From the IMG/VR virus record IMGVR_UViG_3300033074_000233, positions 96,001 through 160,000 of that record: DNA of 64,000 nt. One strand, given 5' to 3'. The notes beneath the pieces are model-generated. The model was not told the origin of the DNA. It worked only from the letters and a program-made list of their open reading frames with translations, and did not search any database. How positions within the stretch are numbered: the stretch's first letter is position 1; the number at the start of each line of letters is the position of its first letter. A program made the position numbers and the translations under genes. This document shows positions 2,781 to 53,447 of the stretch, one piece after another. The DNA is from a virus. Lineage: Duplodnaviria > Caudoviricetes.

Positions 2781-3146
2781 ATGTCGTTCACTGTAAGAAA
2801 CCTCACTGCAAATGCTGTTGCTGTTGGCAAATTGACCATTCCGGGTAACCAGTCTGCAACCGTTGATTTCATCGACGCTGCAATCGTTGCTGGTGTTAGT
2901 GGTGGCTACCTGTCGGTTACTGGTCAAAGTGCCACTTCGCTGGCTGGTACCAACGTCGCACTCGTTGACAGCACCACAGGTGTAGCCTCTGTTACGAACA
3001 CTCTGGTTGACGTTACGGTTGCTCCCACACAGGCTACCATCAACGCTAACTTTGCTACGCTGGCTGCGCTGATTAACCAACTTAGCGTTCAGGTAAACAA
3101 CAGCAATGCTCTTGTTGCTGCACTGAATGCCCGCATCAACGAGTAA
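2781..3146 (+). CDS. Small virion protein (head fibre/decoration-like)
   Basis: AGGAG RBS; A/T/V/N-rich with a C-terminal coiled coil (NFATLAALINQL). Confidence 0.5.
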   Translation: MSFTVRNLTANAVAVGKLTIPGNQSATVDFIDAAIVAGVSGGYLSVTGQSATSLAGTNVALVDSTTGVASVTNTLVDVTVAPTQATINANFATLAALINQLSVQVNNSNALVAALNARINE

Positions 3147-3202
3147 TTAACCAGTGACTGGGGATTAAGGATGATCCCTTTTCACCTAACAGGAGAATCA
3201 AA

Positions 3203-4483
3203 ATGTCTAGGTATGTTGTATTCAACAACACGCGCGAAGTATTTATATCCGATAATTTTCGTATTCCTCCGGGTAACTACCTAACCTTTGAGGTTCTACC
3301 TGCTTCTATAGAAAGAACCAATCTTCTTTCGGTGACTCATTTAGTCACCAATCCAATTCTGTCCGCTATACTGGCAGCAGATGGCGTTACTCTAACGATA
3401 ACTTTTCAGCGTCCTATTACTTCTGTGGTCGATGCTGCCAGCGGATTCTCATATTCAGGCGGAACTATAGCCAGCGGAGTTCTGGATACTGGGACCATAG
3501 TGCTTACAGTACCTCTTACTTACGAAAATATTCCAGTAAGCATTGAATACAGTGGCGATACCGGAAGTTTGTATTCGAGCCTCGGTGCAGTAGACAGCAC
3601 AGGCTATTTTGTCATTGACAACCAGTCCGCAGTACCTGCTCCTCCAGTACTGGTATCTGCAATTATTCCTGTTGATGGCGATACCTTAGAGTTAACCTTC
3701 ACAGAGGATCTAACTGGTACCGCTGATCTTGGATTCGTTACCGACGTAGTGAACATAACTGGCGGTTCCATACTTAACAATGTTCTAACCCTAACTATAG
3801 ATACGGTATATCAAGATGATGCTGTTGGGGTCATTTCTTATGACTCCATCGTGGGCGATCTAACCGGCCTTGGTGGCGTAGTAGAATCTTTCTCGGACAT
3901 TGCAATTTCTAACCAATCAACACGCGGTCCTGGCGTGTTCGCGGTATGGAATGTCCTAGACTCCAACGATGGCATAGATGTCTCTGGTGGTGGTCTTACC
4001 GCATCTTTCAATAGAGTAGCCGGATGGGCAGCAATTCGGGCTAATGGCAGTGTAGCACCTACAGAGAAGAAATACTACAACGTCATTACAAGTCATGCAT
4101 CGGGTACCATTGTTGGTATCGGTACAGCCGCGGCCTCTATTGCGTACAACGGATTTGTAGGATCAGACACAGAGGGATTCGGTTGGTTTATAGCGGCTCC
4201 TTCTACTATATACACTGGTGGGGGTGGTTCAGCCTACGGGATTGCGGTAACTCCAGGACAGACGATCGGCGTGGCTATAAATAAAGTCGATGATGAACTT
4301 GAATTTTTCATCGACGGAGTAGGTCAAGGTACTATTGATATTTCAAGTCTTACCGCTGATAACATTTTCCCAATGATTTCACTTGAGGGAACAGGCCGAA
4401 CACTAACGGCCAACTTTGGTGGCTCTGCTTGGGGTACTTATCCTCCGCCCGTTGGCTTTACTGGAGTAACTGAAAATGCCTAA
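3203..4483 (+). CDS. Virion surface protein: two SwmB/Ig-like repeats plus a C-terminal SPRY/ConA-like domain
   Basis: Repeats PILSAILAADGVTLTITF and PVLVSAIIPVDGDTLELTF; SPRY-like GQTIGVAIN...LEFFIDG...IFPMIS...ANFG. Confidence 0.6.
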   Translation: MSRYVVFNNTREVFISDNFRIPPGNYLTFEVLPASIERTNLLSVTHLVTNPILSAILAADGVTLTITFQRPITSVVDAASGFSYSGGTIASGVLDTGTIVLTVPLTYENIPVSIEYSGDTGSLYSSLGAVDSTGYFVIDNQSAVPAPPVLVSAIIPVDGDTLELTFTEDLTGTADLGFVTDVVNITGGSILNNVLTLTIDTVYQDDAVGVISYDSIVGDLTGLGGVVESFSDIAISNQSTRGPGVFAVWNVLDSNDGIDVSGGGLTASFNRVAGWAAIRANGSVAPTEKKYYNVITSHASGTIVGIGTAAASIAYNGFVGSDTEGFGWFIAAPSTIYTGGGGSAYGIAVTPGQTIGVAINKVDDELEFFIDGVGQGTIDISSLTADNIFPMISLEGTGRTLTANFGGSAWGTYPPPVGFTGVTENA

Positions 4484-45039: not shown

Positions 45040-45348
45040 ATGACGTTTCCTATTCCCGATGACCAACTTGAAGCCGAGGCGCGCAAACTGTTCAACCCTG
45101 AACTGATCTACGCTGTCACAGGTGCCCAAGGCAAGCAACTTGGCCTTGTGATAAAGGCTTTCACCAAGGCTTGGTTCACGCCTGAACACTTCAACCACTG
45201 GTGTGTTACAGTGGGTGAGGAACTGGTACATAGCACCTTCAAGGAGTGGTGGGCTAAGGAGTCGAAAGACCCGAACAGCGAACTTATGATCGGATTCAAC
45301 ATTCACGCCGAGAACATGCGAAAAGGAACTACGAAACATGACAATTAA
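45040..45348 (+). CDS. Hypothetical protein
   Basis: ORF coupled to rtcB. Confidence 0.5.
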   Translation: MTFPIPDDQLEAEARKLFNPELIYAVTGAQGKQLGLVIKAFTKAWFTPEHFNHWCVTVGEELVHSTFKEWWAKESKDPNSELMIGFNIHAENMRKGTTKHDN

Positions 45349-46531
45349 AACGACCTTTCAAGGACACGAGGTTCCTGTCTTTGCTTGGACGGAGGATATT
45401 GAATACTCCGCGATAGAACAGTTGCTGAACCTTAGCCGACTTCCTATCATGTTCAAGCACGTTGCTGCAATGCCTGACGTACACATGGGCGTAGGGGCCT
45501 CAGTAGGAACCGTCATTGCAACCAAAGGCGCTATCATTCCCTCGGCTGTTGGCGTAGACATTGGCTGTGGTATGATTGCAGCCAAGACAAACCTCAACGC
45601 GAGTGACTTACCTGACAATCTACACGCGCTGCGCCATAGCATTGAGCGTTCCATTCCACTAGGTGCAGGTGGTGCGAACTCTAAGGAGTCCGAAGACATT
45701 CGCAAGCCTTGGATGGCAAGCCTTGATGCCGACCACGAAATACTTATCGCTTTGCATCCTGAGTTGAAAACGAAGTACAATCCAAGACAGCAGTTGGGAA
45801 CGCTGGGCTCAGGCAACCACTTCATAGAGGTCTGCCTTGATACCAATGACTCCGTCTGGATAATGCTTCACTCAGGTTCGCGAGGTATCGGCAATCTTAT
45901 TGGCCGCGCTTTCATATCCAAAGCCAAGAAGTATGCTGAGGAGTTTGAGATTCACTTGCCTGATCGTGACCTTGCGTATCTGAATGACGGAACAAAGGAG
46001 TTCGCCGAGTATGTCTTTGCCTTGAACTTTGCTCAAAGGTTCGCAGAGATAAACCGTGAGGTGATGTTTAGTCGTGTTATAAAAGACCTTACTCACTTTA
46101 TGAAGCGTCCTGTAGAAATACTTGGGCACACGGTCAACTGCCATCACAACTACTCCACCATTGAGAATCACTTTGGTGAGGACGTATGGATCACCCGTAA
46201 GGGTGCGGTGAATGCAGCTAAAGGAACTTGGGGTATTATTCCTGGGTCTATGGGCACTAAGTCCTATATCGTTGAAGGCAAGGGTGAAGAAAACTCCTTC
46301 TGCTCTTGTTCGCATGGTGCAGGACGTAGAATGTCCAGAGGAGACGCAAAGCGCAAGTTTACCTTGCAGGATTTGATTGACCAGACCTCAGGTGTTGAAT
46401 GCCGAAAGGACGCTAATGTGATTGACGAAATCCCAGGTGCGTATAAAGACATTGACGTGGTAATGGAAAACCAATCTGACTTGGTAGACGTGCGCGCTGT
46501 TTTGCGTCAAGTCCTTTGTGTGAAAGGGTGA
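45338..46531 (+). CDS. rtcB: RtcB RNA ligase
   Basis: MPDVHMG, VGVDIGCG, GSGNHFIE, HSGSRG, HN, PGSMG, SHGAGR, YKD. Confidence 0.95.
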   Translation: MTIKTTFQGHEVPVFAWTEDIEYSAIEQLLNLSRLPIMFKHVAAMPDVHMGVGASVGTVIATKGAIIPSAVGVDIGCGMIAAKTNLNASDLPDNLHALRHSIERSIPLGAGGANSKESEDIRKPWMASLDADHEILIALHPELKTKYNPRQQLGTLGSGNHFIEVCLDTNDSVWIMLHSGSRGIGNLIGRAFISKAKKYAEEFEIHLPDRDLAYLNDGTKEFAEYVFALNFAQRFAEINREVMFSRVIKDLTHFMKRPVEILGHTVNCHHNYSTIENHFGEDVWITRKGAVNAAKGTWGIIPGSMGTKSYIVEGKGEENSFCSCSHGAGRRMSRGDAKRKFTLQDLIDQTSGVECRKDANVIDEIPGAYKDIDVVMENQSDLVDVRAVLRQVLCVKG

Positions 46532-47062: not shown

Positions 47063-47280
47063 TATGGACTTTGATACTTGGATGAAAGAGTGCCGGCGCT
47101 TGGCCCTTGAGAAGGGTCTGCGTATTCCTGATGACCTGGACGAGGAACAGGCCTTCTTCTGGAAGAACCAGCATGACAACGCTATGATGGCCACAGAGGC
47201 CGTGTTCTACTACCAACAGACGCTGAACGAAGGAGGCTAATGGGCAATTCTGTAAAGTAAGTGTGCAAGAAGCGTAACCA

Positions 47281-47357
47281 CGGGGATTAGCACAGCCTGG
47301 TAGTGCGTCTGCTTTGGGAGCAGAAGGTCGCAGGTTCAAATCCGTCATCACCGGCCA
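47281..47357 (+). tRNA. tRNA-Pro(UGG) with stem mismatches
   Basis: TCTGC-TTTGGGA-GCAGA; one acceptor-stem and two T-stem mismatches. Confidence 0.75.
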
Positions 47358-47364
47358 GTTCAAT

Positions 47365-47482
47365 GGGGTTGGCGAGGACGTATCTTCGCTTTGCAATGGA
47401 GAAGGACTGGACGAAATTCTCCTGAGGTGCAGCAATAGGTGTGAAAGCCTGTTGCGCGGGTTCGACTCCCGCAACCCCACCA
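47365..47482 (+). ncRNA. 118-nt tRNA-like RNA with non-canonical D and anticodon arms
   Basis: GGGGTT/AACCCC-ACCA, T-arm GCGGG-TTCGACT-CCCGC, three internal hairpins. Confidence 0.65.
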
Positions 47483-47486
47483 TTTT

Positions 47487-47518
47487 GCGCCCGTGGCTCA
47501 GATGGATAGAGCAACGAC
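47487..47518 (+). pseudogene. 5' half of an interrupted tRNA-Arg
   Basis: GCGCCCG-TG-GCTC-AGATGGATA-GAGC-A-ACGAC; pairs with the 3' half at 48098-48130. Confidence 0.8.
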
Positions 47519-47534
47519 TATTTATAGGCTATCT

Positions 47535-48008
47535 ATGTGGAAGATTGAGAAAATCGTCAGCAAGGGTGCCTATAACTATGCTGTAGTTAGAGATCATCCA
47601 AATGCAATCAAATACGGATACGTGTTACACCATAGGATAGTTGTAGAAAATCACCTTAAAAGACTTCTGAAAAGAAATGAAGTAGTACATCACATAAACG
47701 GAAAAAAGAAAGACAATCGCCTTAAAAACCTGAAGGTTGAGGATGCTATAACACATGGCAGACTACACGGAATTGAGCAGGGTCGCTTATGGGTAAGTCT
47801 TAGATGTCCTTGGTGCGCCTGCACTTTTCAGCGACCTAGAAACACAACTCACTTGCAGAAGCCCTCAAATCTGAAGGTAACGTGTTGTGGTCCGTCGTGT
47901 AGAGGAAATTTTTCTAGGTACGTTCAGTTGCACGGCAAAACCTTGAGGCTAAAATTAGCAGTTGATGCTAATGTTCAGAAAATATATCGAATATATCAAA
48001 AATTATAG
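47535..48008 (+). CDS. HNH homing endonuclease inserted in tRNA-Arg
   Basis: HPNA...YVLHHRIVVE...EVVHHINGKKKDNRLKNL; C-terminal CxxC...CC...C. Confidence 0.85.
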   Translation: MWKIEKIVSKGAYNYAVVRDHPNAIKYGYVLHHRIVVENHLKRLLKRNEVVHHINGKKKDNRLKNLKVEDAITHGRLHGIEQGRLWVSLRCPWCACTFQRPRNTTHLQKPSNLKVTCCGPSCRGNFSRYVQLHGKTLRLKLAVDANVQKIYRIYQKL

Positions 48009-48085
48009 GGCTGTATCGGAACGGCCTTCTAAGCCGTAGTACCGTAACTGGATCAATGCGAGTTCGAGTCTCGCCAGTCCTACCA
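48007..48085 (+). tRNA. Non-canonical tRNA-Arg(UCU) lacking a normal D-arm
   Basis: AGGGCTG/CAGTCCT-ACCA, ACGGC-CTTCTAA-GCCGT, GCGAG-TTCGAGT-CTCGC. Confidence 0.7.
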
Positions 48086-48097
48086 AGAATTTGCGCT

Positions 48098-48130
48098 AGG
48101 TCGCTGGTTCGAGTCCAGCCGGGCGCACCA
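48098..48130 (+). pseudogene. 3' half of an interrupted tRNA-Arg
   Basis: AGGTC-GCTGG-TTCGAGT-CCAGC-CGGGCGC-ACCA. Confidence 0.8.
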
Positions 48131-48181
48131 CCGAGTTCGATTGTACAGTCGGACAAATGTCAACCACAGAGGTAAGTACCC

Positions 48182-48679
48182 ATGGGTATCAAAACGAAAG
48201 ACAAGAAGTCCACCAAGTCGAAAGGCAAGGAAGAGATCGTGAAGAAAAAGAAGAAGTCGAAGGAAGGCGAGAAAGTAGAACGCTCGTCCAAGAAAAAGAA
48301 GGGCGAGAAGAAAGCGCGCAAAGTAAAAGCCGTGATCGAAGTCAAGCCGATCAAGGAAAAACTGAGCCGCATGGGCCTTATCAATCACCTGGTTGATGAG
48401 ACCGCTGTCGAAGCCAAGTCTGTCAAGAAAGTCCTGGCTGCCCTGGAAGCCACGATCAAGGGTTCGATTATGAAGAAAGGTCTGGGCGAGTTCACCTTCC
48501 CAGGTCTGTTCAAAGTCAAAACCAAGTTCAAGCCGAAGCAGAAAGGCGGCGAGAAGAAGAAGAACCCGTTCAAGCCGGGCGAGTTCATCATCACCAAGCC
48601 GAAGCCCGCTTCGATCAAGGTCAAAATCCTGGCAATGAAGCGTTTAAAGGATGCGGCTGCCCTGCCGCCGAAAGAGTAA
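48182..48679 (+). CDS. HU/IHF-family DNA-binding protein with Lys-rich N-terminal extension
   Basis: LINHLVDET...VKKVLAAL...FTFPGLFK...NPF...KVKI. Confidence 0.8.
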   Translation: MGIKTKDKKSTKSKGKEEIVKKKKKSKEGEKVERSSKKKKGEKKARKVKAVIEVKPIKEKLSRMGLINHLVDETAVEAKSVKKVLAALEATIKGSIMKKGLGEFTFPGLFKVKTKFKPKQKGGEKKKNPFKPGEFIITKPKPASIKVKILAMKRLKDAAALPPKE

Positions 48680-52243: not shown

Positions 52244-52876
52244 ATGATAGTGTGTAAGTGCTGTGGCGAAGAAGCCCGCTGGTGTGGTCCAACGTGTGGA
52301 ACAGAAGAATGCGACCAGATTACTTGCGATCACTGCGGTATGCAGTACGACTGCCAAAGTGAGGCAGCGCAAAACGCAGAGACCTTCGAAGAAGCCCGTG
52401 CTGCTATGCTGGCTTGCTACAACAAGTTGGAGCGTACACCACAGACGCTGAAACTTGTCCTGCAGAAACTCAAGGAAGCCCGTGACGTGCTGGCAGACGT
52501 TGCTGCTATCAGTGGCGACCTGAAGAACTTTGATTCTCTAAGCGAACGGGTGCAAAAGGTGTTGAAGTCTCAAACCTTGACCGAGCCACCTACAACGCTC
52601 CGAGAGTTAGAGCATGACAACGAGTCTGGCGGAGTAGTAACTAAACTTCCAGAAGGAATGTCCTGCGGAGGTCTGAGCAAGTGTGGTTTTGAGAACTGCC
52701 AGAACACTAAAGGAATAACGTCTCGCCTAGTCGGCTTTAACAACGGTCTGGGTGAAGGCGTTATCACTGTGTGGCTGTGCGAACTCCACAAAGACTACGT
52801 TGACCAGAGTTACCAACCCACCAACTATTCAATAGGCTGCAAACAAGAAGGAAAGAACGACAATGAAAACGACTAA
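52244..52876 (+). CDS. Cys-rich hypothetical protein (Lar-like zinc ribbon)
   Basis: AAGGAG RBS; CKCCG...CDHCG. Confidence 0.45.
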
Positions 52877-53447
52877 GGTCCACTTCTTTCAGAAAGGCAA
52901 TACACATAAATCAATCTGTGGTCAACCAGACTACATGGTCAATAAAATTGCCAAGACTCCTGAAGAGGTTACGTGTAGTAACTGTTTACGTTCAATGGAG
53001 ACCGCCAAGAAACTGGATACCAACGCTGTCTTCCGCGACCTTGTTGGGATGAAAAAGCGTTTCGCTAGTAACCAGGATTGGAAGTCAGTGACTACGCTCC
53101 AGAACGCCATCAAGTACATGACCGAACTTGAAGGTCGTCTTGGTATCCAGAATCTGGCTGCACTGCAGGAACGCTTCATGCCTGTAGTGATCCCCAAGTC
53201 CTTCGACCGTGAACGCTGGTTGCGAGTCTGTAAAGTATTCGTAGATAATCTCGGTATCAAGCCGGAAGAATGCAAGCCTGATTCCGACATTATCGAAGAC
53301 CTCGGCGCAGACAGCCTGGACACTGTGGAACTGGTGATGGGCCTTGAAGAGGAGTTTGAAATTCAGATTCCAGACGAAGACGCAGAGAAGGTAACCACGC
53401 TGGGCAAGGCCTATGAGGCTGTGACGAAATTACTCGCAGGGAGATAG
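52863..53447 (+). CDS. Zinc-finger/acyl carrier protein fusion
   Basis: C-terminal [31 protein letters not shown]; N-terminal H...C...CxxC. Confidence 0.85.

Follow-up and report, generated by a model that had tools for sequence, protein, structure and literature searches.

A phage tRNA-Arg(UCU) gene split by an HNH endonuclease of probable intron descent and accompanied by a rearranged replacement tRNA

Intron homing and intronless homing are both established modes of endonuclease spread (PMC3984707). An example from a tRNA gene is the cyanobacterial tRNA-fMet intron with its anticodon-region endonuclease (Bonocora and Shub 2001, cited in PMC3984707), and further group I introns of tRNA anticodon loops occur in tRNA-Leu(UAA) and in the tRNA-Ile of Azoarcus (PMC13168695). 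The SegB protein of phage T4 is a free-standing homing endonuclease located in the T4 tRNA cluster (PMC2330249). The intron-encoded HNH endonuclease gp210 of phage PhiPA3 interferes with a gene of the co-infecting phage (PMC11620839). It has long been asked how such endonucleases pass from introns to a free-standing existence and back (PMC3984707). The locus described here is best read as an intron-derived homing endonuclease in which the ribozyme has been overwritten by an immune replacement tRNA. A literature search, conducted mostly outside subscription journals, found neither the rearranged tRNA nor HNH introns at U34 of tRNA-Arg(UCU) nor replacement-tRNA cassettes described.

The window, which is the whole stretch of DNA analysed, comprises 64,000 nt of the 215,992-nt virus record IMGVR_UViG_3300033074_000233. 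The split tRNA-Arg locus (47487-48130) lies inside a cluster of tRNA genes (Met, Thr, Leu, Leu, Pro), flanked on one side by rtcB (45338-46531), which is located 956 nt upstream of the 5′ remnant, and on the other by an HU-like gene (48182-48679). A sequence-only reading had proposed a tRNA-Arg gene divided by an HNH cassette with a second tRNA-Arg nested in it, and all of these pieces are present where it placed them, in the following order:

47487-47519, plus strand: 5′ remnant of the canonical tRNA-Arg(UCU), with the acceptor strand, the complete D arm and the 5′ anticodon-stem strand; the former 5′ exon
47520-47534, plus strand: putative eroded 5′ end of a group I intron (P1 guide/ribosome-binding site), holding the upstream repeat copy
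47535-48008, plus strand: HNH_3 homing endonuclease ORF (Pfam), 157 aa (P0001), ATG start
48007-48085, plus strand: rearranged (segment-swapped) tRNA-Arg(UCU) of 79 nt with encoded CCA
48086-48096, plus strand: spacer at the right junction, closely resembling the junction of the sister locus L175
48097-48130, plus strand: 3′ remnant of the canonical tRNA-Arg, with the variable loop, 5-bp T arm, acceptor strand and encoded CCA

The outer acceptor stem had been described as perfect, and indeed the acceptor strand of the 3′ remnant pairs at 7 of 7 positions with 47487-47493; the overlap of the inner tRNA with the HNH stop codon also holds and amounts to 2 nt. The 5′ remnant matches the 5′ exon of the intron allele L145 and keeps the D-arm consensus AGAGCA, and the 3′ remnant is the former 3′ exon, shortened by 9-10 nt at its start. 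The insert has a lower G+C content than the genome (39% vs 48%), and AGA serves for 7 of the 14 arginine codons of the HNH gene, compared with 13% genome-wide. The genome contains no canonical tRNA-Arg(UCU) gene.

Several other features of this region were recorded. A tRNA-like RNA of 118 nt (47365-47482, plus strand), composed of an acceptor stem, a T arm, CCA and three inner hairpins, ends 4 nt before the 5′ remnant and folds better than 200 of 200 shuffled sequences (z -3.9). Beyond the T arm it has no Rfam or phage match, and a motif scan gave mostly tRNA-Ser variable arms. The tRNA-Pro(UGG) gene (47281-47357, plus strand) carries mismatches in the acceptor and T stems and may be decaying. 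The HU-like protein has a long Lys-rich N-terminus, and the protein encoded at 52863-53447 has a C-terminal acyl-carrier domain.

The HNH protein matches Pfam HNH_3 at E 1.8e-5, with 24.7 bits against a cut-off of 24.8. Its family-invariant residues H52, H53, N65, H74 and H78 are intact, the His, Asn and Cys residues are kept, and the C-terminal part forms a Cys zinc-finger region, without the tail that overlaps the ribozyme core in the intron alleles. Comparison of solved structures with the HNH profile gave only weak zinc-finger matches. In the family census, homologues were traced back to their DNA and classified, which gave 88 distinct full-length members. The larger part of them (54/88) is of intron type, within group I-type introns between U34 and C35 of tRNA-Arg(UCU), and the other 34 are free-standing. 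A tRNA-Arg neighbour is present in 30 of the 34 free-standing members, rearranged in 7 cases and canonical in 23. In the breakdown of this class, 20 adjoin a canonical Arg(UCU) recognized by ARAGORN and six a rearranged one recognized by the structural filter; three adjoin a tRNA-Arg identified by eye (L226, L176 with anticodon CCU, and the rearranged L185), L229 adjoins an antisense piece of Arg(UCU), and two are truncated starts of intron-type loci. At L225, a tRNA-Arg is split by the same HNH family with neither an intron nor a replacement tRNA nearby. Altogether 84 of the 88 members are found inside or next to a tRNA-Arg gene that is either complete or split by an intron, and 3 more beside tRNA-Arg fragments. 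Judged by this placement, the family is a tRNA-Arg(UCU) specialist, and P0001 is a probable free-standing homing endonuclease by its homing-family nuclease domain and consistent association with a single target.

The introns of the relatives are 593-651 nt long. Their joined exons give tRNA-Arg(TCT) in 48 of 49 complete loci, both P7 strand motifs are found in 53 of 54 alleles, and the distance from the 5′ splice site to the ORF start is 15-21 nt in 33 of 48. Rfam group I matches were obtained in 5 loci (E 4.5e-8 to 0.005), all under the gathering score. Such core motifs and rejoined exons, seen for example in L145, L147 and L170, mark the relatives as apparent mobile group I-type introns, for which self-splicing is predicted. 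In this intron family (L145, L147, L150-L152 and about 50 more loci), mostly under the Rfam threshold, the HNH frame runs into the ribozyme core and the guide sequence doubles as the ribosome-binding site. Two intron-type loci, L319 and L320, come from bacterial MAG contigs, and L147 carries a second group I intron (3134-3588, 68.8 bits) 500 nt downstream of the tRNA-Arg intron.

The relation of the window to these introns is seen in its closest sister. P0001 is sister to P0002 (62% identity, SH-aLRT 95), which is intron-borne in L145, and the quick locus tree groups the window with L145 and L175 (SH-aLRT 88). The window and L145 align over the 5′ exon, the few nucleotides ahead of the start codon and the ORF; their similarity ends where the ribozyme core starts and resumes 9-10 nt into the 3′ exon. 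Such a pattern suggests that the ribozyme was lost by overwriting with a tRNA gene. The probable origin of the HNH gene from a group I intron at this very site had been overlooked in the sequence-only reading. L175 has the layout of the window and a similar right junction but a canonical replacement tRNA. Since the locus tree is unrooted, quick and weakly resolved, with 13 changes of intron label needed and 3 of them forced by strong branches, the probable direction from intron to free-standing gene rests mainly on vestigial spacing: the segment 47520-47534 has the position and spacing of the GGAGC motif of 53 of 54 intron alleles. The ribosome-binding site of the HNH gene is eroded, and the element may no longer be active. 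An intact syntenic allele, sought by means of the downstream HU-like gene, was absent among L001, L155 and L157, which are not syntenic here, and L154, which starts after the tRNA.

The segment before the ORF also bears on the repeat TTATAGG, noted earlier at both ends of the HNH gene. The repeat is present; its upstream copy occupies the place of the intron guide and ribosome-binding motif, and a 7-mer common to both ends arises in 4.3% of shuffles. It is probably eroded intron sequence plus chance, and a reading as a target-site duplication, though conceivable, is not needed to explain it.

The nested gene had been identified as a tRNA-Arg(UCU), and both gene and anticodon stand; that its fold is rearranged and not a cloverleaf had been missed. 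ARAGORN misses this tRNA, and the Rfam match (40.7 bits) involves deletion of the D arm and an insertion of 17 nt. Its parts, all on the plus strand, are:

48007-48013 paired with 48075-48081: acceptor stem
48017-48019 paired with 48042-48044: D-stem equivalent of 3 bp, enclosing the anticodon arm
48021-48037: anticodon arm, with UCU at 48028-48030
48045-48057: D-loop-like linker before the T arm, with GG at 48050-48051 and the A20 equivalent at 48052
48058-48074: T arm

The acceptor stem of 7 bp, the anticodon and T stems of 5 bp, the 7-nt loops and CCA are all those of a tRNA, but the D hairpin between the acceptor and anticodon arms is absent. Its place is taken by a 7-nt connector, and a 20-nt linker with the D-loop-like GG follows the anticodon arm. 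The canonical bacterial or phage tRNA-Arg(UCU) of the argU type shares with it the acceptor, anticodon and T arms, U8-A9, the GG followed by A, A73 and CCA. It differs in that the argU type is a four-way junction, whereas the inner tRNA has no D hairpin and is a three-way junction, with the D-stem placed around the anticodon arm and the D-loop sequence after it. The metazoan mitochondrial tRNA-Ser(AGY) is D-armless, and like it the inner tRNA has a short connector instead of the D hairpin. The two differ in that the inner tRNA has moved its D elements instead of losing them, has a canonical T loop and would serve in bacterial translation. The identity set of tRNA-Arg consists of A20, C35, U/G36 and A/G73, with A20 as the main determinant for ArgRS (PMC9976931). 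The inner tRNA carries C35, U36 and A73, as well as an A after the relocated GG, which would take the place of A20 in space. Charging by ArgRS through these positions is predicted.

Rearranged tRNAs of this type were collected by two pattern scans of viral contigs, together with the GenBank phages SOVA965, DC31, Atu_ph04 and Slicko01, followed by a structural filter. Among the 105 distinct copies, 101 have Arg anticodons (UCU 67, ACG 19, UCG 9, CCU 5, GCG 1) and 4 have Ile anticodons. Positions 11-13 are Watson-Crick paired with the three bases before the conserved linker UA in 91% of cases, as measured on the 61 copies whose D-stem letters were not set by the search pattern, and in 35% after shuffling (maximum 49% in 2000). 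In a gap-free alignment of 32 copies, double changes occur in all four helices, and the D-stem columns 11-38 and 12-37 are paired in 32 of 32, with 7 and 19 double changes, respectively. The rearranged fold is shown by this covariation. A pseudoknotted tRNA was also considered; the four covarying helices are nested, without crossing, and the fold is therefore a three-way junction. The base after GG is A in 99 of 101 Arg copies, a count that one of the two search patterns partly presupposes, and U in 3 of 4 Ile copies.

The neighbourhood of the rearranged genes was compared with that of canonical ones. HNH or RAP-type nucleases stand beside at least 11 of 53 rearranged Arg(UCU) loci, and the Pfam families of the ORFs there include HNH_2 in 7, HNH_3 in 4 and RAP in 3. 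Beside 52 canonical loci, no Pfam family has more than 1 member among the 25 of 43 families listed. A split canonical gene with a rearranged Arg(UCU) inside recurs with unrelated nucleases, RAP/DUF559-like in L058 and L010 and HNH_2-type, on the other strand, in L035. Most of the 105 copies have no adjacent nuclease, and the fold therefore need not have arisen for immunity to this HNH protein.

Individual members of the set show further variation. L023 (1175-1539, minus strand) holds a tandem of three rearranged tRNA-Arg genes (UCU, CCU, ACG) with different but compensating D-stems, and the copies with Ile anticodons (GAU, UAU) from L060, L062, L131 and L097 mostly have U instead of A after GG. 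In phage DC31 (L003, 2151-2574), an HNH gene precedes the rearranged tRNA and the first 9 nt of the tRNA are duplicated upstream; L047 is a nuclease-free allele of this site. In L024 (3201-3375), a decayed rearranged tRNA-Arg is followed directly by an intact canonical Arg(UCU), and the swap seems reversible.

The replacement tRNAs differ from the presumed targets in sequence. Immediately ahead of the insertion point, 36 of 41 intron hosts and 44 of 59 background viral Arg(UCU) genes carry the motif AGAGCA-N5-YTT, but 1 of 21 canonical replacements does (Fisher p 1e-10 against intron hosts and 1.5e-8 against the background, in tests that take related sequences as independent and with a background that includes prophage and host tRNAs). 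AGAGCA is kept in the abandoned 5′ halves of 7 of 8 free loci where it was not cut off. The full motif is absent from the 216-kb genome; within the window, the outer remnant alone has the D-arm part and the rearranged gene alone the anticodon part. Such a pattern would be expected of an enzyme that reads the 3′ strand of the D arm and the anticodon loop, with the replacement as its putative immune allele.

With a probability of roughly 0.7, the locus is an allele of a phage tRNA-Arg(UCU) gene that carries a homing endonuclease and makes up for the damage with a spare tRNA, where splicing formerly did so. By homology, the HNH family resides mainly in group I-type introns of about 600 nt between U34 and C35, where the ORF begins shortly after the 5′ splice site, and this would be the starting state. 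Recombination may then have put a complete tRNA-Arg(UCU) in place of the ribozyme core and the initial 9-10 nt of the 3′ exon. With its ribozyme core overwritten, the old gene could no longer be spliced and was left as two halves. The avoidance pattern suggests that the HNH protein recognizes a stretch of consensus tRNA-Arg(UCU) DNA that runs from the 3′ part of the D arm to the anticodon loop. Since the rearranged tRNA keeps the anticodon arm without the D-arm sequence before it, the genome holds no full site, and the cassette could home into intact alleles of co-infecting phages while AGA decoding is kept. The rearranged RNA would be processed from the transcript of the tRNA cluster, adopt a tRNA-like L shape with the relocated D-loop, and be charged by the host ArgRS through the A20 equivalent, C35/U36 and A73. 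The idea of a homing element that destroys the anticodon of its target and supplies a resistant tRNA had already been raised, and it is supported by the family census, the sister alleles and the target avoidance, with cleavage itself at the level of prediction. An evenly balanced case can be made for a broader proposal: that a segment-swapped tRNA-Arg without the cloverleaf order occurs naturally in phages and serves in bacterial translation, that the HNH family switches repeatedly among three occupations of one tRNA-Arg(UCU) anticodon (self-splicing intron, diverged canonical replacement and rearranged replacement), and that the rearranged tRNA is a topological immunity allele against nucleases reading the D arm and anticodon.

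Other explanations differ in what they take to be selected. The rearranged tRNA may itself be the selected unit, for instance by escaping a host anticodon nuclease or a modification-dependent defence at the RNA level, with the HNH gene hitch-hiking and immunity as a side effect. The many copies without an adjacent nuclease and the range of anticodons (UCU, ACG, UCG, CCU, GCG and Ile) speak for it, as does the presence of a canonical Arg(UCU) in only 2 of 39 records, many of which are fragments. Yet in the HNH family canonical replacements outnumber rearranged ones threefold (23 vs 7), and these too avoid the consensus, which points to avoidance at the DNA level. The explanation is unlikely, and it is not exclusive of the homing reading. 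Somewhat less probable still is a dead relic, in which ordinary recombination within the tRNA cluster brought a tRNA gene next to a decayed intron allele and the HNH protein has ceased to home. Such decay would fit the eroded ribosome-binding site, the long terminal branch and the split halves without replacement at L225, but the ORF is intact with all family-invariant residues, and chance decay does not predict that 30 of 34 free members, on many branches, stand against a tRNA-Arg. An assembly artefact joining similar tRNA sequences is conceivable for a single metagenomic contig; the identical order of parts in the independent contigs L175, L058, L010 and L035 and the match of the halves to the exons of a sister intron allele make it the least credible explanation.

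A spliced tRNA had been offered as the second interpretation, in which the insertion would be cut out and the phage RtcB would join the two halves, either directly or with the inner anticodon arm between them. In its favor, the ligase gene is close, the outer acceptor strands can pair in the precursor, and ARAGORN calls tRNA-Arg(TCT) when the 5′ half, the inner anticodon arm and the 3′ half are joined, as had been stated. Such a three-piece join, however, needs two excisions that destroy a conserved gene, and the breakpoints differ among the twin loci. The outer halves have neither the anticodon loop nor the 3′ strand of the anticodon stem, their best stem pairing is 3 of 5, and none of the single joins tested yields Arg(UCU). 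No group I core is found either: a search of 47200-48250 with Rfam RF00028 gave nothing up to E 10, and the core motifs are absent. RtcB is nearby in 0 of 46 other HNH-family loci and 1 of 127 rearranged-tRNA loci, and its closeness here is therefore not part of the system. With no intron core, no anticodon in the halves and no linked ligase elsewhere, splicing has very little probability. The two corresponding classes were rejected for the window itself, the group I intron because the catalytic core P3-P9/P7 is absent and the exons do not rejoin to a tRNA, and the protein-spliced tRNA intron (endonuclease plus RtcB) because the exons have no full anticodon arm and the ligase does not co-occur. 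Folding of the 644-nt precursor did not recover the inner tRNA, although such long-range prediction is unreliable.

The homing reading gives the locus a wider meaning, as the change of a homing endonuclease from an intron-borne to a free-standing gene could be followed at one site within one small clade, where the three states can be compared directly. It predicts a mappable target and an immunity rule, and an unannotated tRNA architecture gains a functional context. If the rearranged tRNA is charged, ArgRS, EF-Tu, RNase P and the ribosome could all do without the cloverleaf order, and phage arginine tRNAs would be undercounted by tRNA finders.

Among known systems, the mobile group I introns of tRNA anticodon loops resemble the locus in having an endonuclease aimed at the anticodon region, and the 54 intron-type relatives are of this kind; the window, in contrast, has no ribozyme core and cannot splice. 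The relatives themselves differ from the known tRNA introns by their site at U34|C35 of tRNA-Arg(UCU), their occurrence mostly in phage-like contigs and the HNH_3 tail overlapping the core. The closest free-standing counterpart in a phage tRNA cluster is T4 SegB (PMC2330249), with which P0001 would share the cutting of tRNA genes of co-infecting phages and spreading together with flanking tRNA genes. SegB, however, is a GIY-YIG enzyme of intergenic location that reads a T-arm motif and tolerates sites in its own genome, whereas the HNH gene of the window lies inside its broken target and is paired with an isoacceptor-specific replacement without the presumed site. The PhiPA3 gp210 is likewise a phage intron HNH endonuclease acting against a co-infecting phage, which makes it a model for the benefit to the carrier, but its target is a protein gene and it has remained in an intron that splices. 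Compared with these systems, the locus is best taken as intronless homing in which an unusual tRNA, probably immune, serves as the compensating allele.
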